In this document: in pieces, positions 3,193 through 42,878 of the stretch
Numbering within the stretch: position 1 is the stretch's first letter
Layout of the letters: each line of letters opens with the position of its first letter
NCBI GenBank assembly: GCA_963662545.2
Contig: CAXXLL010000002.1
Coordinates: 672,001-736,000, forward strand
DNA length: 64,000 bases
Direction: 5' to 3'
Source: Gammaproteobacteria bacterium
Lineage (GTDB): Bacteria > Pseudomonadota > Gammaproteobacteria > Ga0077536
Translations under genes and position numbers: made by a program
The notes under the pieces: model-generated
Seen by the model: only the letters and a program-made list of their open reading frames with translations
What the model was told of the DNA's origin: nothing
Databases searched by the model: none

Positions 3193-3403
3193 TCAGATCA
3201 GGACATAACTTGTAAGAACTCAGACTTGCTCTGACAGTTCCGCCACGCAAATTAATGTCCGCTATCGAAAACATTCCGCTCATACTTCGGGATGGCGATT
3301 TCGGCAGCTCTCGGCCATGGACGGACAATGTTTGTGCCCGGTGGTATACCAAATTGCAGGCTCTAGGCTATCCTTATCACGAGGCTATTCCTATAAGGAA
3401 CGT

Positions 3404-3727
3404 ATGCACAATTTGGTACAGTGTCTGTTGTTCATCGGTTTACTCAGCATCGGCACGGGCAAGGCCGTGCAGGCCGACGACCTGCGCGGTTTCGTTCTCG
3501 CCAGCTCCTGCGTAAGCTGTCACGGTGATGCTTCACCGAACGGTGCGGGTATCCCCGCCATCGTCGGAAGGGACGCCGCGTTTATCGCCGATGCACTGAA
3601 AAATTTTCGTTCAGGCGCGCGCGTATCGACCATCATGCAAAGGCTCGCGCGTGGTTACGACGACGCAGAAGTTGAACTTATTGCCGCATGGCTGGCCAAA
3701 ACTCAGTCCACAATTGTGAGACCCTGA
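3404..3727 (+). CDS. fccA: Monoheme cytochrome c, flavocytochrome c cytochrome subunit
   Basis: Signal peptide, CVSCH heme motif, STIMQRLARGY; directly upstream of fccB. Confidence 0.8.
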   Translation: MHNLVQCLLFIGLLSIGTGKAVQADDLRGFVLASSCVSCHGDASPNGAGIPAIVGRDAAFIADALKNFRSGARVSTIMQRLARGYDDAEVELIAAWLAKTQSTIVRP

Positions 3728-4999
3728 ATGCAACGCCGTAATTTTCTCGGGCAATCGGCTGGGATAGCAGCGCTCGCCATGCTGACACCATGGCGAGCGA
3801 CCGCGACAACGTCTGCGCGGACGATCATTATTGGCGGTGGATTCGGCGGAGCGACCTGTGCGCGCTATCTGCGCTTACTCGATCCCGGCCTCGCCGTCAC
3901 ATTGATCGAAAGCGACGCCGCCTTCGTAACCTGCCCTTTCAGTAACCTCGTACTCGCAGGAATGCGCACCGTTGACGAAATCACGCATACGTACGCCCGA
4001 CTTCGAGCGTCCGCGATCACAGTGATTCACGATACAGCGACCGCAATTGATGCCGACAATCGTCGCGTAGCGCTCGCCAGTGGTAAGCAACTGGACTATG
4101 ACCGGCTCATCGTCGCCCCTGGGATCGCACTGAAGTTCGACGCTGTACCTGGCTACGACACGGCCGCGGCCGAGCTCATGCCGCATGCCTGGAAGGCTGG
4201 CGCACAGACATTATTGCTACGCCGGCAACTCGAGGCGATGAACGACGGAGGTGTGGTTGTGATTGCGGCGCCGGCCAATCCGTTCCGTTGCCCGCCCGGA
4301 CCTTATGAACGCGCCAGCTTGATTGCGCACTATCTGAAGCAGCACAAACCGAGATCCAAGATCCTGATTCTGGACACCAAAGACAAATTTTCAAAGCAGA
4401 GTCTGTTCCAGCAGGGTTGGAACGCGCTCTATCCGGGCATGATTGAATGGGTCGCCGGATCCGCCGGTGGGTTGGTTGAACGTGTGGAGGCCGCGTCGCG
4501 GACCCTGGTGACCGAGTCCGGTTTTACTGAACACCGCGCCGACGTGGTAAATTTCATCCCGCCGCAAGAGGCCGGGCAAATCGCGCAGCAAGCCGAACTC
4601 ACGGATGCTTCCGGTTGGTGCCCGGTTAATCAGCTCAGTTTCGAGTCGCTGCGTATTCCCGGTATACACGTTCTCGGTGATGCCGCGATAGCCGGTGCGA
4701 TGCCAAAATCAGGCTTTTCCGCCAACAGCCAGGCGAAAGTTTGTGCGGCTGCAATCGTCGCAGCATTGCGCGGTGACCCGATACCGGAAGCTTCCTACGC
4801 CAACACCTGTTATAGCCTTGTCGGCCCCGATTACGGAATCTCGGTCAGTGCGGTATATGCCCTTACTGATAGTGCCATCGCCGCCGTTAAGGGCGCCGGA
4901 GGATTAAGTCCGAGCGATGCCGATCCCGCGTTTCGCGCGCGCGAGGCGGCCTACGCTCGCGGTTGGTATTCCAGTATTACAGCCGATACCTGGGGCTAG
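3728..4999 (+). CDS. fccB: Flavocytochrome c sulfide dehydrogenase flavoprotein (FccB/SoxF)
   Basis: Tat signal RRNFL, GGGFGGA, FRCPPGPYERAS, MPKSGFSANSQAK, NTCYS. Confidence 0.92.
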   Translation: MQRRNFLGQSAGIAALAMLTPWRATATTSARTIIIGGGFGGATCARYLRLLDPGLAVTLIESDAAFVTCPFSNLVLAGMRTVDEITHTYARLRASAITVIHDTATAIDADNRRVALASGKQLDYDRLIVAPGIALKFDAVPGYDTAAAELMPHAWKAGAQTLLLRRQLEAMNDGGVVVIAAPANPFRCPPGPYERASLIAHYLKQHKPRSKILILDTKDKFSKQSLFQQGWNALYPGMIEWVAGSAGGLVERVEAASRTLVTESGFTEHRADVVNFIPPQEAGQIAQQAELTDASGWCPVNQLSFESLRIPGIHVLGDAAIAGAMPKSGFSANSQAKVCAAAIVAALRGDPIPEASYANTCYSLVGPDYGISVSAVYALTDSAIAAVKGAGGLSPSDADPAFRAREAAYARGWYSSITADTWG

Positions 5000-9088: not shown

Positions 9089-10920
9089 GAGGTCTGCAAA
9101 GGGTCCAGGCTGTCCATAAACTCACTTTGCGGAGCACTTGACGGCTCATCCGGGCTGTTTGGTAGCGGCGTCATCACGATGCGCTGATTCTGCGCGTCCA
9201 ACAGCGTTTGAGAAACTCGACGCCAAAGTGGCGAAGGACATTCGCCGCCGCGGTCTATCCAACACCCGGAGGATGTTTCGGGAAAAAGGCGGGTTCCTAT
9301 GACTGTATCGCTTCTATGAGTGGCGCAACCCCGAGTATCGCCATCGCCCGTTTCATGTTGTACGCCAGCACGTGCAAACTCATCTCCGTACCCACGTTCT
9401 TCAGCGTTTTCATTTGGAAGTGTGTCGACCCCATCCAGGATTTCAACGTGCCGAAGGGATGTTCGACGGTCTGTCGTCGAACGCGCATGCGCGCGGGCTC
9501 TTTGTCCAACCTTGCTTCAACCGCTTCGAGCACGGCTTCGTGCTCCCAGCGGCTGACGCGTCGTTCTTTCCCCGTCGTGCACTTGCCTTTGAGCGCACAT
9601 GAACCACACGTCGATGCCCAGTAACGGTAGATTGTTAATCCGTCTTGGTGTGTTTCCGTGCGGCGCGTCAGTCGCTCTCCCGCCGGACATTCGTATTCGT
9701 CATCATCGGGCTTATAAATGAAATCCCGTTTGCCGAAGAGGCCCTTCGCCAGATTGCCCGAGGTCTGGGGTTTCGGCAGATAAGTCGTGACCCCCGCTTC
9801 ATCACACGCCAGGCTCTCCTCGCTCCTGTAGTAACCCCGGTCCGCGACAACCTCCAGGTGCTCAACACCGAGTGCTTCCTTCGCTTGCTTTGCCATGGCG
9901 GCGAGCGCCGCTCGGTCATGACCCACGTTCGTCACCTCGTGCGTCACGATCATATGATGTTTAGCGTCAACCGCCGCCTGTACGTTGTAGCCCACCATCC
10001 CCGTACCGCGCCCGCTGGTCGCCATCGAGCGGGCGTCTGGATCAGTCAGTGAGATCTGTTGGCCCGGTGCCTCAAGCATCCGGGCTTCCAACTTTTTTAG
10101 GCGCGCCATCTCCTCTTTCAGTCGGCTGATTTTATCCGCCAGTCGCTCCGTTTTGTCCTTCGCAACCGCTGCTTCCTGACGGTCAGCACTCGCCATCTGA
10201 CCCAGATACCGCTCAATGCTCTCGTCAATCTGCGCCAACCGACGCTTCAGCTTCGCCTTGGTGAAGTTCCGCTCCCGGTTGTTCACCGCCTTGAACTTGC
10301 TGCCATCAATCGCTACAAATGCCTCCGAGAATAATTCCAGCTTCCGGCACAGCATCACAAACTCCCGGCACACCAGACGAATGGCGACACCGTTGTCCTT
10401 CCTGAAATCCGCGATGGTTCTAAAGTCAGGCGCTAAGCGACCCGTCAGCCACATCAACTCCACATTGCGCTGCGCTTCACGCGCCAGCCGTCGCGATGAC
10501 TGAACTCGATTCAGGTAGCCGTATACGTAAAGTTTTAAAAGGGTTCTCGGATCGAAGCCCGGCCGACCCGCGGCCTTGGCCTCCGACTGGAAACCTAGAC
10601 CGGAAATATCCAGCTCGTCGATGAATACATCAATCACGCGCACCGCACTGTCTTCGCCGATGTAATCATCCAGTCGCTCTGGAAACAGCGTCGCTTGGTA
10701 GCGATCTTCGCCTTCAATGAATCCACTCATCAGACGATTCCTTGCGCGAAAGGTCGATTATAGATTCATGGGAGTTTTCGGACAGCCTGGGTCGTAAGCC
10801 GCCCGCTCGCGGCAGTGCAGCACTGCTAGAGGTTAGGTCTGGGATACCCTCGTAAGCGGCCATTCCCTTCTCATAAAAAGCATCGCAGCGCTTGACTTCG
10901 GCTCGCGGCTAAGAGCGGTC
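9089..10920 (+). repeat. Three-box array repeat R4 (split by IS1182-A in box 1)
   Basis: GAGGTCTGCAAAGGGTC[IS]GGTCGTAAGCCGCC..GCAGTGCAGCACTGC..AAGCGGCC..GGCTCGCGGCTAAGAGCGGTC. Confidence 0.9.
9106..10789 (-). mobile_element. IS1182-family element A (transposase 9297-10730)
   Basis: 477-aa DDE transposase (IDGSK, ADRGY, VEHPFG); TIR CAGGCTGTCC.AAACT; GGTC duplication. Confidence 0.95.
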
Positions 10921-13016: not shown

Positions 13017-13150
13017 GTGGCCGCTTAGGGTCGTCGGCGGCCTCCTCGCGGCACTGCAGCACTGTTTTAGATTGCGTCTGCTATTCCCTCCATAGCGGTC
13101 GTCCAATAGCGTTCAGCGGAACGTTTACAGAGCACTTCAGCTTACAGCCG
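13017..13150 (+). repeat. Three-box array repeat R5
   Basis: GGCCGCTTAGGGTCGTCGGCGGCC..GCACTGCAGCACTG..GTCTGCTATTCCCTCCATAGCGGTC. Confidence 0.92.
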
Positions 13151-13362
13151 AGGCTTTTCTTGCAACGCTCGACATTCCGATCTCGGCACCGAGCCTAGGC
13201 GGACCCGAAACGTTGGTGACGTGCCCTGCCATCACTTCGCACGCGGGACTGTCGATAGCAGCGCGCGAACGCCTAGGTGTCAGCAACGCTTTGATCCGCT
13301 GCTCGACGGGTTTGGAGGACGCTGATGAGCTGATTGCTGATTTCGCCCAAGCCCTCGGTTGA
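13147..13362 (+). pseudogene. Cys/Met PLP lyase (MetB/MetC type), 3' fragment starting in box 3 of R5
   Basis: Own translation: AEAFLATLDIPISAPSLGGPETLVTCPAITSH...LIRCSTGLEDADELIADFAQALG*. Confidence 0.85.
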
Positions 13363-15159: not shown

Positions 15160-16992
15160 GATGTCCGCTGTGGGTCCAGAGTGTGTGAAAACTCTGCATC
15201 AGATAAGATCACTCTTTCGGTCCTGGGGAGTCGTTGATGAGCGGGTTCATTGAAGGCGCGGACCGCCGCCAAACAACGCTGTTTCCCGAGTGTCTGGACG
15301 ATTATGTCGCTGAGGAGAGTGCGGTGCGGGTCATCGATGTGTTCGTCGATGAGTTGGATCTGTCAGGTCTGAGTTTCAGAACCGATGCGCATGAGACGGG
15401 TCGACCGGGGTATCACCCGGCGACGATGCTGAAGCTCTATATCTACGGTTACCTGAACCGGGTTCAATCGAGCCGTCGCCTGGAACGGGAGGCGCAGCGG
15501 AACGTGGAACTGATGTGGCTGACGGGTCGTCTGGCGCCTGATTTCAAGACCATTGCCGATTTCCGCAAAGATAACGGTGACGCCATTCGTCTGGTATGCC
15601 GGGAGTTCGTGATGCTGTGCCGTAAGCTGCAGCTGTTTTCGGAAGCCTTCGTGGCGATAGATGGCAGCAAGTTCAAAGCGGTAAACAACCGTGACCGGAA
15701 CTTCACGAAGGCGAAGCTGAAACGTCGGTTGCAGCAGATTGACGAGAGCGTTGAGCGGTACCTGGCGGAAATTGCAAGTGCCGACCGCCAGGAGCGTGCG
15801 GTGTCAGGTGACAAGTCGCAGCGTTTGAAGGACAAGATCGAGGTACTGAAGGAAGAGATAGGCCGCCTAAAAAAGCTCGAGGTACGGCTCGAGGAGACGC
15901 CGGACCATCAGGTCTCACTGACGGACCCGGACGCGCGCTCGATGGCGACGAGCGGCCGTGGCAGCGGCATGGTGGGGTACAACGTGCAGACGGCGGTCGA
16001 CACGAAGAGTCATCTGATTGTGGCACATGAAGTGACGAACGTAGGTCATGACCGGGCGCAACTGTCGAACATGTCGGAGAAAGCCAAAGAGGCGCTGGAT
16101 AAGAAGGAGTTGACCGTCGTTGCGGATCGCGGGTACTTCAGTGGCGAAGAGATCTTGGCGTGCGCTAAAGCCGGCATCACGACCTATCTGCCGAAACCGC
16201 AGACCTCGGGTAACCAGGCGAAGGGCTTGTTTGGCAAGCGCGACTTCATTTACCAACCCGAAGAGGATGCGTATGAATGCCCGGCCGGTGAGCGACTGAT
16301 TTACCGGTTCACCCGAGTGGAGAAAGGCAAGCAGATCCGGCGCTACTGGAGTTCGGCGTGTCCCCGCTGCCCGATCAAATCTAAATGCACAACGGGTCGA
16401 TACCGGCGCGTCAGCCGTTGGGAACATGAAGCGGTTGTTGAAGCGGTGCAGGCGCGATTGGATCGTGAACCTGACCCTATGCGTGTCCGCCGAGAGACGG
16501 TCGAGCATCCATTTGGCACGATCAAATCCTGGATGGGTTCGACCCACTTCCAGATGCGCACGCTGAAACACGTTGGTACGGAAATGAGTCTGCACGTGCT
16601 CGCTTACAACATGAAACGCGTGATGAATCTACTGGGTGTCGCTACGCTCATCGAAGCGATGACGGCATGAGACCCTCTGTGGCCTCGAAAACTCCCTGAT
16701 CCACGGCTTCACTGCCGGCTTCTGGGGCCGTTCTAAGGAATGTTCCATTAACTAACCGATCGCATTGGACCGCGAGCGCGGCCGTCGTAACCGCGCCGCG
16801 TTGCGTCTGACGAGGAGTTCTCGACGTGATTCCTCTTCATTCCGAGTTTTCACACACTCTGGGTCGGTAGCTGCCTGATCACCGCGGCGCAACGCTGCTC
16901 TAGTTTACGTCTACAATGCGCTCGGAAGCGGTCATCGAGTTGCTTTAAGCGTTAAGTCGAGAGGGTACGACGGCTCTCGGCCAAGTGTGGGC
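15160..16992 (+). repeat. Three-box array repeat R6 (split by IS1182-B)
   Basis: GATGTCCGCTGTGGGTC[IS]GGTCGGTAGCTGCC..GTCTACAATGCGCTCGGAAGCGGTC..GACGGCTCTCGGCC. Confidence 0.9.
15177..16861 (+). mobile_element. IS1182-family element B, copy 1 (transposase 15237-16670)
   Basis: TIR CAGAGTGTGTGAAAACT, 1685 bp, GGTC duplication. Confidence 0.95.
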
Positions 16993-28304: not shown

Positions 28305-30138
28305 AAGTCCGCTGTGGGTCCAGAGTGTGTGAAAACTCTGCATCAGATAAGATCACTCTTTCGGTCCTGGGGAGTCGTTGATGAGCGGGTTCATTGAAGG
28401 CGCGGACCGCCGCCAAACAACGCTGTTTCCCGAGTGTCTGGACGATTATGTCGCTGAGGAGAGTGCGGTGCGGGTCATCGATGTGTTCGTCGATGAGTTG
28501 GATCTGTCAGGTCTGAGTTTCAGAACCGATGCGCATGAGACGGGTCGACCGGGGTATCACCCGGCGACGATGCTGAAGCTCTATATCTACGGTTACCTGA
28601 ACCGGGTTCAATCGAGCCGTCGCCTGGAACGGGAGGCGCAGCGGAACGTGGAACTGATGTGGCTGACGGGTCGTCTGGCGCCTGATTTCAAGACCATTGC
28701 CGATTTCCGCAAAGATAACGGTGACGCCATTCGTCTGGTATGCCGGGAGTTCGTGATGCTGTGCCGTAAGCTGCAGCTGTTTTCGGAAGCCTTCGTGGCG
28801 ATAGATGGCAGCAAGTTCAAAGCGGTAAACAACCGTGACCGGAACTTCACGAAGGCGAAGCTGAAACGTCGGTTGCAGCAGATTGACGAGAGCGTTGAGC
28901 GGTACCTGGCGGAAATTGCAAGTGCCGACCGCCAGGAGCGTGCGGTGTCAGGTGACAAGTCGCAGCGTTTGAAGGACAAGATCGAGGTACTGAAGGAAGA
29001 GATAGGCCGCCTAAAAAAGCTCGAGGTACGGCTCGAGGAGACGCCGGACCATCAGGTCTCACTGACGGACCCGGACGCGCGCTCGATGGCGACGAGCGGC
29101 CGTGGCAGCGGCATGGTGGGGTACAACGTGCAGACGGCGGTCGACACGAAGAGTCATCTGATTGTGGCACATGAAGTGACGAACGTAGGTCATGACCGGG
29201 CGCAACTGTCGAACATGTCGGAGAAAGCCAAAGAGGCGCTGGATAAGAAGGAGTTGACCGTCGTTGCGGATCGCGGGTACTTCAGTGGCGAAGAGATCTT
29301 GGCGTGCGCTAAAGCCGGCATCACGACCTATCTGCCGAAACCGCAGACCTCGGGTAACCAGGCGAAGGGCTTGTTTGGCAAGCGCGACTTCATTTACCAA
29401 CCCGAAGAGGATGCGTATGAATGCCCGGCCGGTGAGCGACTGATTTACCGGTTCACCCGAGTGGAGAAAGGCAAGCAGATCCGGCGCTACTGGAGTTCGG
29501 CGTGTCCCCGCTGCCCGATCAAATCTAAATGCACAACGGGTCGATACCGGCGCGTCAGCCGTTGGGAACATGAAGCGGTTGTTGAAGCGGTGCAGGCGCG
29601 ATTGGATCGTGAACCTGACCCTATGCGTGTCCGCCGAGAGACGGTCGAGCATCCATTTGGCACGATCAAATCCTGGATGGGTTCGACCCACTTCCAGATG
29701 CGCACGCTGAAACACGTTGGTACGGAAATGAGTCTGCACGTGCTCGCTTACAACATGAAACGCGTGATGAATCTACTGGGTGTCGCTACGCTCATCGAAG
29801 CGATGACGGCATGAGACCCTCTGTGGCCTCGAAAACTCCCTGATCCACGGCTTCACTGCCGGCTTCTGGGGCCGTTCTAAGGAATGTTCCATTAACTAAC
29901 CGATCGCATTGGACCGCGAGCGCGGCCGTCGTAACCGCGCCGCGTTGCGTCTGACGAGGAGTTCTCGACGTGATTCCTCTTCATTCCGAGTTTTCACACA
30001 CTCTGGGTCGATAGCCGCCTCATCGGGGCAGGGCAGCACCACCAAGCGACACGTCTGGATTACTTTCGAAAGCGGCCATCCTGCTTCTGTTGGCATCACC
30101 TCTGAGGGTGACTTCGGCTCTCGGCCAAGTGCCGTCGT
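28305..30138 (+). repeat. Three-box array repeat R11 (split by IS1182-B)
   Basis: AAGTCCGCTGTGGGTC[IS]GGTCGATAGCCGCC..GTCTGGATTACTTTCGAAAGCGGCC..TTCGGCTCTCGGCC. Confidence 0.9.
28321..30005 (+). mobile_element. IS1182-family element B, copy 2
   Basis: Same protein and TIRs as copy 1; GGTC duplication. Confidence 0.95.
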
Positions 30139-38859: not shown

Positions 38860-40136
38860 ATGGGGTCGTATCCGGCCCCATCGCGGCACTGCAGCACTGC
38901 TCTAGTGTGCTGTCCCGCAAAGAAGTTTCGAAAGTCGGGCGAGTTTTTTCAAGATTGAATCGGCGGTTGCGGTCCATGCGAAAGGCACGGGGTTGGCGTT
39001 GTGCTGAGCAATATAGTGCTCGATACACGCAATGAGTTCTTTCACCTTTCGGAATGAACCGCGCTTGATAGCGCGCTGACTGATGAGACCAAACCAACGT
39101 TCGACCTGGTTGAGCCATGCAGCGTAGGTTGGCGTAAAGTGGACGTGAAATCGAGGTCGGCGAGCGAACCAGGCACGGACTTTCGGATGCTTGTGCGTGC
39201 CATAGTTGTCCATCACCAGATGCACATCCAGGTCGGCCGGAACGTTTTTCTCGAGGTGCTTGAGGAAGGACAGAAATTCCTGATGACGATGCCGCGCTTT
39301 GCACTGCCCGATGACGGTGCCGTTGGCGATATCGAGCGCCGCGAACAACGTGGTCGTGCCGTGCCGGAAGTAATCATGCGTGACGCCCTCGACATAACCG
39401 AGCCCCATCGGCAGAACCGGCTGACTGCGTTCCAGTGCCTGGATTTGGGTTTTTTCATCCACACACAAAACCAGCGCATTATCGGGTGGATTCAGGTACA
39501 AGCCGACGATATCGCGCACTTTCTCGACCAAGAACAGGTCGGTAGAGAGCTTGAACGTGCGGCTGCGATGCGGCTGGATCCCGAACAACGTGAAATAGCG
39601 ATGAACCGTACTCTTCGAGGGCTCGCTCACGCGTGCAAACGAACGGGTGCTCCAATGGGTCGCGTCCTCCGGTTGCTCGCGCAGCGATCAAGCGCGCAAC
39701 CTCATCGTCGTCATACGTCCGCCGACGATGACCCGGCGGCAGGTCATACAATCCGGCGACCCCGTTGGCGATATACCGGCGACACCAATTCGTGACCGTC
39801 GGATTGGACACATCGAGCTTTCTGGCAAGCGCGCTGTTAGACAGCCCATCGGCTGCCATCACGACGATCTTTGCGCGCCGTGCCAGCGCATGCGGCAGAC
39901 TGCGCGACCTCGCGTAACTGTTGAGGACCTCGTGTCCCTCCTCGCTCAGTTTAACCGTAAAGGATCTGGGTCGACCGCTAACCATCGCCTTGCTCCTGCA
40001 TGACACAATAGCCGATCTGATCATCACGACTTATGAAAGTTCATCGTGGGACAGCACACTAGATTACGTCTGCAATCCACTCAAGAGCGGTCGTCGAGTT
40101 GGTATCTTCGCCTTGCCGTGGGTGCACTGCGGCAGT
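38860..40136 (+). repeat. Three-box array repeat R16 (split by IS630 at CTAG)
   Basis: GGGTCGTATCCGGCC..GCACTGCAGCACTGCTCTA[IS]TAGATTACGTCTGCAATCCACTCAAGAGCGGTC. Confidence 0.9.
38905..40059 (-). mobile_element. IS630-family element, transposase frameshifted near 39670
   Basis: TIR GTGTGCTGTCCC; TA duplication; VDEKTQIQAL, MDNYGTH, WLNQVERWF. Confidence 0.92.
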
Positions 40137-40203: not shown

Positions 40204-40917
40204 TCAGAGTTCGGCGCGTTTGCTACCCAAATAATCGCTGATCTTCCAGAAATCCCCAGTGAGGCCAATCTCGTCGAGGTATTTCTGCAGATTGTCGATC
40301 CGTGGCATGCGGTAATCTTTAGAGAAGCGATCGAGGCCGCCGATCAATCCTGCCTCGTGCAACGATATGAGGTGGCCGCCTGCGTAATGCGGATTCTCTT
40401 CTCCCCAGCGTTCGACATGTTCTTCAGACCTGAAGAAATTGAGTCCGTTTCAGGCCATTTCCCAGTTGTGAAACCACTCCCGAAAAGGGAGCCCGACATG
40501 GATGCGCAGCTCAGAGTGACTTTGTGCGACGACTTGTCGATCTTTGCAACGGACTTCGAAGGGCTCCCCGCAGTGCGGACAGCACGAGCAGATCAGCGCC
40601 TCATCGTCGGGGAACATGTAGGACAGCCCCAATGCGTCGAGTCCACATACCGTGTAGGCGGTGTGCCCGCCACTGTAAGTCACATGATGGATTGTCGGGA
40701 CATTCGAGTACGGAAAGGCCATCAGCAGGTTCTGTGTACCACGAACGCGGACGATGTCATGCTGCCTTTCCAATTCGTCCAAGACCTCGATCACACGTTC
40801 ACGGCTGATGCTAAAGTGCTGCATCAAGTCGCTTAAGTTGGGCGTGCGGCCTGTTTTGTAACAATGATCGAGAATGTGCAGACGAACAGGCTGCGAGAGT
40901 TCGAGTTTGTAAGGCAA
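40204..40917 (-). CDS. MerB-like organometallic lyase family, probable selenoprotein (UGA at 40450-40452)
   Basis: RBS GGAGG + TTG; MAFPYS, VCGLDALG, CPHCGE; in-frame UGA then NGLNFFRSEEHVERW...GLTGDFW; SECIS-like hairpin. Confidence 0.8.
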
Positions 40918-41050
40918 GTTACTACCTCCTCATGCCGCTGGGGTGAACGTGCGCGGTCAGCGGAACGAGCGCGCGGCTCTACTCGAGTATATAGGCAAGA
41001 AAAGCGGGGTTGTAAGTACAGAAATTTTGGGGTCAGGGTAAAAACCCATT

Positions 41051-42878
41051 AGGACCGCTTCGGGTCCAGAGTGTGTGAAAACTCGGAATGAAGAGGAATC
41101 ACGTCGAGAACTCCTCGTCAGACGCAACGCGGCGCGGTTACGACGGCCGCGCTCGCGGTCCAATGCGATCGGTTAGTTAATGGAACATTCCTTAGAACGG
41201 CCCCAGAAGCCGGCAGTGAAGCCGTGGATCAGGGAGTTTTCGAGGCCACAGAGGGTCTCATGCCGTCATCGCTTCGATGAGCGTAGCGACACCCAGTAGA
41301 TTCATCACGCGTTTCATGTTGTAAGCGAGCACGTGCAGACTCATTTCCGTACCAACGTGTTTCAGCGTGCGCATCTGGAAGTGGGTCGAACCCATCCAGG
41401 ATTTGATCGTGCCAAATGGATGCTCGACCGTCTCTCGGCGGACACGCATAGGGTCAGGTTCACGATCCAATCGCGCCTGCACCGCTTCAACAACCGCTTC
41501 ATGTTCCCAACGGCTGACGCGCCGGTATCGACCCGTTGTGCATTTAGATTTGATCGGGCAGCGGGGACACGCCGAACTCCAGTAGCGCCGGATCTGCTTG
41601 CCTTTCTCCACTCGGGTGAACCGGTAAATCAGTCGCTCACCGGCCGGGCATTCATACGCATCCTCTTCGGGTTGGTAAATGAAGTCGCGCTTGCCAAACA
41701 AGCCCTTCGCCTGGTTACCCGAGGTCTGCGGTTTCGGCAGATAGGTCGTGATGCCGGCTTTAGCGCACGCCAAGATCTCTTCGCCACTGAAGTACCCGCG
41801 ATCCGCAACGACGGTCAACTCCTTCTTATCCAGCGCCTCTTTGGCTTTCTCCGACATGTTCGACAGTTGCGCCCGGTCATGACCTACGTTCGTCACTTCA
41901 TGTGCCACAATCAGATGACTCTTCGTGTCGACCGCCGTCTGCACGTTGTACCCCACCATGCCGCTGCCACGGCCGCTCGTCGCCATCGAGCGCGCGTCCG
42001 GGTCCGTCAGTGAGACCTGATGGTCCGGCGTCTCCTCGAGCCGTACCTCGAGCTTTTTTAGGCGGCCTATCTCTTCCTTCAGTACCTCGATCTTGTCCTT
42101 CAAACGCTGCGACTTGTCACCTGACACCGCACGCTCCTGGCGGTCGGCACTTGCAATTTCCGCCAGGTACCGCTCAACGCTCTCGTCAATCTGCTGCAAC
42201 CGACGTTTCAGCTTCGCCTTCGTGAAGTTCCGGTCACGGTTGTTTACCGCTTTGAACTTGCTGCCATCTATCGCCACGAAGGCTTCCGAAAACAGCTGCA
42301 GCTTACGGCACAGCATCACGAACTCCCGGCATACCAGACGAATGGCGTCACCGTTATCTTTGCGGAAATCGGCAATGGTCTTGAAATCAGGCGCCAGACG
42401 ACCCGTCAGCCACATCAGTTCCACGTTCCGCTGCGCCTCCCGTTCCAGGCGACGGCTCGATTGAACCCGGTTCAGGTAACCGTAGATATAGAGCTTCAGC
42501 ATCGTCGCCGGGTGATACCCCGGTCGACCCGTCTCATGCGCATCGGTTCTGAAACTCAGACCTGACAGATCCAACTCATCGACGAACACATCGATGACCC
42601 GCACCGCACTCTCCTCAGCGACATAATCGTCCAGACACTCGGGAAACAGCGTTGTTTGGCGGCGGTCCGCGCCTTCAATGAACCCGCTCATCAACGACTC
42701 CCCAGGACCGAAAGAGTGATCTTATCTGATGCAGAGTTTTCACACACTCTGGGTCGTCAGCGGTCCCCTAGTCGCAGTGCAGCAATGTTAATCGTCACGT
42801 CTGCAATACACTCATAAGCGGTCTTCTAGTAGCGTTCGACGGCGGGATTATTGTGGACGGCGGCTCTCAGCCGAGGAC
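41051..42878 (+). repeat. Three-box array repeat R17 (split by IS1182-B, inverted)
   Basis: AGGACCGCTTCGGGTC[IS]GGTCGTCAGCGGTC..GTCTGCAATACACTCATAAGCGGTC..GGCGGCTCTCAGCC. Confidence 0.9.
41067..42751 (-). mobile_element. IS1182-family element B, copy 3
   Basis: Same protein and TIRs, opposite orientation; GGTC duplication. Confidence 0.95.

Follow-up and report, generated by a model that had tools for sequence, protein, structure and literature searches.

Does the in-frame TGA that closes a 155-aa open reading frame (ORF) mark the end of a protein, or is it a selenocysteine (Sec) codon inside a longer gene? The ORF lies on the minus strand (40917..40450) of the 64,000-nt stretch of DNA that was analysed here, hereafter the window, and has a TTG start. 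Past its TGA the frame stays open for 81 codons (NGLNFFRSEEHVERW...GLTGDFW...) until a second TGA at 40206-40204; the read-through product has 237 residues, with the internal UGA as codon 156. The original prediction for this DNA had described exactly this arrangement, and its coordinates are correct. We consider it probable, at roughly 80%, that the locus is the gene of a 237-residue MerB-family enzyme whose UGA codon 156 is decoded as Sec, and that it belongs to a clade distinct from SaoL, the MerB-like selenoprotein already described. Because TGA also serves as an ordinary stop in the window and is in fact the commonest one (16 of the 33 Pfam-supported ORFs), any recoding should be local and not the result of a changed genetic code. 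The features of the locus are collected in Table 1.

Table 1. Features of the putative selenoprotein gene and of its immediate surroundings, numbered in the window.
Feature	Position	Strand	Remarks
IS copy, 478-aa DDE transposase	41066..42752	-	Ends 148 nt upstream of the start codon; context, outside the gene
Shine-Dalgarno-like AGGAGG	40925..40930	-	7 nt 5' of the TTG start; conserved in the ortholog L001
Full read-through CDS	40204..40917	-	237 codons and terminal TGA; TTG start 40917-40915
N-terminal winged-helix-like region, residues 7-62	40732..40899	-	Weak Pfam HTH matches; three modelled helices; aligned to the MerB2 N-terminal part
Cys91 codon TGT, equivalent of MerB Cys96	40645..40647	-	Structure-sequence alignment; Cys in 51/55 clade members
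Asp94 codon GAC, equivalent of MerB Asp99	40636..40638	-	Alignment; Asp or Glu in 49/55 clade members
Proposed Sec156 codon, in-frame UGA	40450..40452	-	Column of MerB catalytic Cys159; TGA also in L001
Candidate SECIS upper stem-loop	40420..40437	-	7-bp stem, GGUC loop at 40429-40426, 12 nt after the UGA; encodes F161-E166
IS630-type transposase, downstream of the gene	38902..40027	-	Two overlapping ORFs: HTH 39479-40027, DDE_3 38902-39630; outside the gene

Membership in the MerB family was examined with the read-through product. It matches the Pfam profile MerB (PF03243) with 84.8 bits against a gathering score of 27 (E 6.3e-24), and the match (residues 71-188) spans the UGA; the 155-aa fragment alone covers only positions 2-78 of the 126 profile positions. 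The Pfam HTH matches of the N-terminal region are weak (GntR 0.016, MarR 0.1). Among solved structures the best sequence match is MerB2 (5c17; E 1.4e-12). In the alignment to 5c17 and 3f2g, Cys91 and Asp94 fall on MerB Cys96 and Asp99, and the UGA falls on Cys159 and its MerB2 equivalent, followed by the FF.S motif. An AlphaFold2 model of the read-through product, computed with U as C from a 99-sequence alignment, has a pLDDT of 93.4 and a pTM of 0.88, and the blocks after the UGA reach a pLDDT of 87-98 except for the last few residues. All 11 PDB entries matched by the model at E <=0.001 in Foldseek are MerB or MerB2 (E 7.9e-13 to 8.2e-07); 5c17 is found at E 7.9e-13 with a TM of 0.76 by target and 3f0o at 2.1e-10, and the identity is only 20-26%. 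The UGA sits at the catalytic Cys159 position of the MerB fold, and this position is conserved. The column of the Cys159 ligand holds the UGA codon, which supplies a ligand only if it is decoded as Sec. This pairing of the TGA with a Cys column, together with its conservation, is the strong evidence in our analysis, rather than the hairpin that is discussed below.

To what extent the column is conserved can be seen in the relatives. A word-indexed search gave 3 proteins at E <=0.001 among 177 candidates, and an exhaustive HMMER search gave 723 proteins at the same threshold, of which the best 150 were used; the UGA column was then counted in a MAFFT alignment of 153 stored proteins. Cys occupies this column in 115 of them (the query placeholder included), 12 have a gap, and the rarer residues are Trp in 3, Ala in 2 and Asn, Tyr and Arg in 1 each. 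The remaining 18 proteins end before the column, 15 of them exactly one residue before it and 3 at 54-80 columns earlier. All three of the closest database proteins (72-93% identity, one an NCBI record) stop at residue 155, before the TGA column, which bears out the expectation that annotation pipelines truncate the gene. The entry P0002 (NCBI/ENA, 180 aa) is identical in kind to the 155-aa fragment except that it carries a 25-residue tandem duplication (IVRVRGTQNLLMAFPYSNVPTIHHV twice), which is either real or an artefact in another assembly of a close relative. The central claim of the original prediction, namely that Sec replaces the second catalytic Cys, is supported by the pairing of the TGA with Cys159, by the Cys residues in the column, and by an ortholog that keeps both the TGA and a selected frame after it. 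The alignment with homologs that it had proposed as a check gave the Cys/UGA pairing both in the 153 proteins and at Cys159 of MerB and MerB2. It had also named what would speak against it, a non-Cys column without any other UGA-bearing homolog; what we found is a Cys column and a second gene with the UGA.

A FastTree tree of 135 rows was constructed solely from the part of the alignment that precedes the Sec position. It omits P0002, P0014, rows with under 110 residues in that part, rows that stop earlier and rows gapped at the column. The query and all 14 truncated rows that were entered fall into one clade of 55 rows (support 88), which also holds 34 Cys, 3 Trp, 1 Arg, 1 Tyr and 1 Ala forms. 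The other 80 rows are 77 Cys forms and the single true SaoL (P0145), among others. The starred branches of the tree require the truncated state to have changed at least 5 times. The last residue of the 14 truncated clade members is T in 13 and A in 1, and truncated relatives with the same end column extend down to about 30% identity. The TGA itself is read in the DNA of two genomes, those of the window and of the ortholog; the other relatives are known as proteins, and judging from their ends the stop codon of the truncated ones would be TGA. A tblastn search of a plasmid collection gave 63 records, all below 60% identity and of classical MerB types, and no TGA-bearing relative was found among these 63; one unannotated match, on an NGR234 plasmid, has Cys at the UGA column.

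The ortholog, L001, was the one confirmed match among 119 pattern matches in a genome scan for relatives. It lies in a Gammaproteobacteria MAG (CBDCJB010000008.1), is 91% identical to the gene in protein and 94% in DNA, and has the TGA at the same codon, the same open frame downstream and the same stop. At a dS of about 0.25-0.34 between the two genes, no further stop or frameshift has appeared in the 81 codons. By the Nei-Gojobori method, dN/dS is 0.10 before the UGA (codons 1-155) and 0.21 after it (codons 157-237); read in the other two frames, the downstream part gives 0.67 and 6.8. Nonsynonymous changes in the downstream part are too few (10 of 21, against 79% expected; P=0.0016, from the one ortholog with DNA). 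The downstream frame is thus under purifying selection, and the part after the TGA should therefore have been translated in-frame since the split from L001. A run of 62 nt after the UGA is identical in the two genes; this is not significant (P ~0.06 at synonymous sites), another part of the gene has a run of the same length that is free of synonymous changes, and we dropped the identity as evidence. The two loci are homologous over the gene, about 100 nt on its 5' side and 38 nt on its 3' side, and the neighbours differ. The conserved stretch of about 100 nt on the 5' side (40918-41017 in the window, 9900-10000 in L001) includes a T-rich/TATATACT stretch, and a simple scan upstream of the gene gave 0 sites of the sigma-70 promoter type.

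The surroundings of the gene are dominated by mobile elements. The upstream IS copy is one of three that are 99.8-100% identical and about 1.7 kb long (15163-16880, 28307-30024 and 41066-42752; DUF772/DDE_Tnp_1), and a 477-aa relative of its transposase is encoded at 9297-10730. The split of the downstream IS630-type transposase reflects either a frameshift or a programmed frameshift. The window as a whole is very IS-rich, with ISL3, IS3-type, IS630-type and IS91-type transposase genes in addition, one IS91 being split. Besides IS elements, the neighbours of the gene are a cupin and luciferase-like monooxygenases, and flavin monooxygenases are also present in the window; L001 has short-chain dehydrogenases, a PNPOx-like protein and an enoyl-CoA hydratase next to it. 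Of a PLP enzyme of Cys/Met metabolism the C-terminal end remains (13096-13360, +; profile positions 310-380 of 381); it lies just 5' of a flavin monooxygenase gene and looks like a gene fragment left by rearrangement. A gene for the flavoprotein of flavocytochrome c sulfide dehydrogenase (FCSD domains; 3317-4999, +) suggests a sulfur-oxidising lifestyle. It follows a 136-aa ORF that ends in an in-frame TGA, and recoding of this TGA was rejected, the arrangement being one of ordinary gene adjacency.

Such surroundings bear on the first of the alternatives, in which the gene is Sec-type by descent and is now stranded in a host without Sec machinery, either lost there or missing since the gene was transferred between IS elements, and only the 155-residue fragment is made. 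The flanking IS elements and the unrelated contexts of the gene in the window and in L001 agree with this, and so does the content of the window. None of selA, selB, selC and selD was found in either of the two stretches searched, the 64-kb window and 20.7 kb around L001, and a tRNA scan of both found no tRNA. Likewise, none of the 46 tested read-through candidates (of 119) in the window has a Pfam domain across its TGA that would indicate a second selenoprotein gene. However, 64 kb is too small for sel genes to be expected by chance, the Shine-Dalgarno sequence and the start are intact and conserved, and the purifying selection on the downstream part since the split from L001 implies translation in this lineage. 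We therefore regard a stranded gene as unlikely, and decoding of the UGA as Sec as the better account.

The signal for such decoding would be the hairpin UUCUUCA-GGUC-UGAAGAA, which the original prediction had placed twelve nt after the UGA and which is read there in the sequence, with 7 contiguous pairs and a 4-nt loop, and identically in L001. Its likening of the apical loop to that of E. coli fdhF, at a similar distance from the UGA, is also confirmed by the K-12 sequence (NC_000913.3), which shares the octamer CAGGUCUG and has a spacing of 18 nt as compared with 19 nt here. The bSECIS criteria, as given in the available text of a review (PMC13188914), are a loop of 3-9 nt, an upper stem of 4-16 bp, a G in the first two loop positions, a UGA-loop spacing of 16-37 nt and an MFE <=-7.5 kcal/mol. 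The values of the window hairpin lie within all of these ranges (loop 4 nt, stem 7 bp, GG start, 19 nt, -8.3 kcal/mol). In L001 the loop, the stem and the G position are also within range, but the MFE of -6.6 fails the -7.5 limit; the value of -8.3 in the window needs a 3-bp lower stem that is broken in L001. The hairpin alone (21 nt) has -5.4 kcal/mol, and its E. coli fdhF equivalent -5.7.

How often such a structure occurs by chance was also examined. Of all TGA triplets in the window, 311 of 2041 (both strands, 15%) pass the bSECIS criteria as implemented, and 8 of the 2041, this UGA included, are followed by at least 7 stacked pairs with a loop of 5 nt or less starting with GG or GU. In the window there are 5 occurrences of the octamer CAGGTCTG, where 1.43 would be expected, and 3 of the 5 lie in IS copies. 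When 15 codons were recoded synonymously, a proportion of 0.6 of 5000 recodings folded as well as the hairpin; for FFRSEE alone, the codon-usage-weighted P for the hairpin stability is 0.12. Folds of 71 nt and 45 nt are no better than shuffles (z -1.15 and -0.61). The stability is unexceptional against the recodings because Phe and Glu codons pair by nature. Rfam gave no match at the gathering score in the whole window and, around the gene, a chance snoRNA match only (E 8.8). The second DNA copy, L001, is identical in the hairpin, so that there are no compensatory changes to read as covariation. The hairpin fits the SECIS model without proving it and is weak evidence when taken alone.

An ordinary-looking hairpin would also suit read-through without selenium, in which a near-cognate Trp or Cys tRNA reads the UGA at low level, or the Trp homologs reflect a true TGG state, and the hairpin acts only as a read-through or pausing signal. 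Trp is indeed found at the Sec/Cys column in 3 of the 55 clade members, P0049, P0050 and P0079, and P0049 is sister to a truncated form. These Trp calls may equally be TGA codons that a pipeline translated under another genetic code, or they may be true TGG. Trp at the metal-ligand position of MerB would, however, leave the active site without function, Cys, with which Sec is usually paired, is present in 34 clade members, and the loop and spacing match those of a proven SelB target, fdhF. On these grounds we judge selenium-free read-through to be quite improbable and keep Sec as the residue at codon 156.

The relatives also speak against a plain pseudogene, in which a Cys codon TGY became TGA and the rest of the frame is decaying. 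It would take a single change (TGC/TGT to TGA), and the IS-rich region does hold gene remnants such as the PLP-enzyme piece and the split IS91. A nonsense mutation is nevertheless very unlikely, because L001 keeps the same TGA together with 81 intact and selected codons at the divergence given above, because 15 of the 153 proteins, down to about 30% identity, end at the same column, and because these truncated forms are interspersed with Cys forms. In addition, the part after the TGA is called as a separate ORF in many other contigs. When the 81 residues behind the TGA were searched against proteins of 44-142 aa, 23 of 65 candidates matched. Two of the 23 are 52-aa ORFs from close relatives, equal to the ORF that gene callers place at an internal start of the present gene (40362..40204). 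The other 21 are ORFs of 69-87 aa on other contigs, 36-43% identical, which start three residues after the Sec column.

The decapeptide FRSEEHVERW is identical in all 23 Sec-type sequences (the 21 fragments, the window and L001), a count with serious retrieval bias, because the C-terminal search needs shared exact 5-residue words and fragments without the motif would be missed. FRSEEHV(E/S)RW is present in none of the 34 Cys-type clade members, which have looser versions of the motif. A search from the C-terminus of a Cys-type relative gave 2 candidates, one with the same start and FRSEEHVSRW and the other with a later start. The first five residues of FRSEEHVERW are encoded by the 3' two thirds of the hairpin, and the invariance of the motif in Sec forms would be explained by an RNA constraint, i.e. 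by a SECIS. The separate ORFs could also be taken to mean two products by design, a 155-residue protein (HTH and half a MerB domain) and a C-terminal peptide from an internal start, as gene callers predict here and in the relatives, but this is scarcely credible, since the first in-frame start is 30 codons after the UGA with neither a Shine-Dalgarno sequence nor a conserved start there, and since the MerB domain, the model and the solved structures all run through the UGA position without interruption, and a break would remove one metal ligand.

With decoding as Sec preferred, the following course of events can be proposed. SelB with Sec-tRNA(Sec) would bind the stem-loop 12 nt downstream as the ribosome nears the UGA and would deliver Sec there, and translation would run 81 codons further to the real stop. 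In the product, which would adopt the MerB fold, Cys91, Asp94 and Sec156 would take the positions of Cys96, Asp99 and Cys159 of MerB; a metal would be bound by thiolate and selenolate, and the carbon-metal bond would be cleaved by protonolysis. Sec insertion, SelB binding, the enzymatic activity and the substrate are in this scheme what we infer from sequence and from comparison with known proteins. The gene belongs to a MerB-like clade apart from both SaoL and the MerB of mer operons, in which Cys and Sec forms are interspersed.

A more general proposal, which we put forward tentatively and would rate at slightly less than an even chance, is that this is a widespread second clade of MerB-family selenoenzymes without a curated model. 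It would comprise at least 14 truncated and at least 21 C-terminal clusters (50% identity), include oxygen-using Proteobacteria, lie outside the anaerobe-restricted SAO system, and have exchanged Sec and Cys repeatedly. In its Sec forms, an fdhF-type SECIS that overlaps the codons may freeze FRSEEHV(E/S)RW, and the clade may act on an organometal(loid) distinct from the organomercurials of mer operons. In the full-text literature searched, no second Sec-containing MerB clade is described, a prior listing in supplements or in the published Haft papers being possible, and the term MerB is absent from the main text of the GOS paper (PMC2398784) and of Peng 2016 (PMC5029168).

When one of the metal ligands of a carbon-metal lyase is Sec, the active-site chemistry is altered. 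SaoL, the one case described so far, belongs to a special locus found in strict anaerobes; the present clade is found in ordinary genomic contexts of Proteobacteria with an fdhF-like candidate SECIS. If a second independent Sec/Cys clade is real, the swap from Cys to Sec would be recurrent at this position of MerB, and the clade would offer a simple natural pair of Sec and Cys enzymes for comparison. It would also allow annotation to be repaired for a class of genes that at present appear as two pieces, an 'alkylmercury lyase' fragment of 150 residues and a 'hypothetical protein' of 70. In practical terms the gain is modest, and conceptually the step beyond SaoL is small.

We finally compare the gene with the three known systems that it resembles. 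With the SECIS of E. coli fdhF it shares the position of the hairpin in the coding region after the UGA and the GGUC loop closed by CA/UG within the identical octamer. The stem here has no bulge, while in the upper stem of the fdhF fold a U is left unpaired, and the 45-nt structure is much weaker (-8.3 against -14.9 kcal/mol); SelB binding is a prediction in the present case. With MerB and MerB2 (3f0o, 3f0p, 5c17) it shares the fold, the catalytic Cys and Asp and the N-terminal helical domain, and it differs from them by the UGA codon in place of the second catalytic Cys. Identification as the MerB proper of a mer operon was rejected: the scores against NCBIfam NF009710 (37.6 bits, cut-off 193) and NF033555 (31.9 bits, cut-off 200) are below both cut-offs, and a Pfam scan of 44 window ORFs and 17 L001 ORFs found no merR, merT, merP or merA. 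No model of NCBIfam release 20 claims the protein.

The closest parallel is SaoL. According to the accessible part of the preprint by Haft and Gwadz (bioRxiv 10.1101/2022.07.06.499078), it is a MerB-like selenoprotein that has Sec on MerB Cys159, is truncated in databases at its C-U site, and marks a nine-gene SAO locus of strict anaerobes. Two reviews, in their available text, name one MerB-like selenoprotein family (PMC13188914, PMC9312934), and the former, of 2026, equates it with SaoL and the C-U motif. The original prediction had noted that Sec-containing MerB-like proteins have been reported, which is true of SaoL with Sec at the same position, although SaoL represents a different clade. 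As far as the SaoL description available to us (NF040728) goes, both proteins belong to PF03243, have the UGA at the Cys159 position and Cys and Asp at the Cys96 and Asp99 positions, and are truncated at the UGA. Identification of the gene as SaoL was nevertheless rejected. It scores 67.3 bits against the NF040728 cut-off of 140, as compared with 224.8 for the true SaoL P0145 on the opposite side of the tree; of the 14 truncated clade relatives, 12 score 72 bits or less and 2 have no match. The motif is A-U in the gene and T-U in most of its relatives, in place of the C-U of SaoL, and neither an ABC transporter of the SAO type nor efflux pump or double-cubane genes lie near the gene in the window or in L001. 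The hosts of SaoL are exclusively anaerobic, as stated in the same part of the preprint, whereas the window of the gene contains oxygen-dependent enzyme families, namely luciferase-like and flavin monooxygenases. We read the gene as a member of a second MerB-family clade with Sec and Cys forms, as yet without a model of its own, standing beside SaoL.
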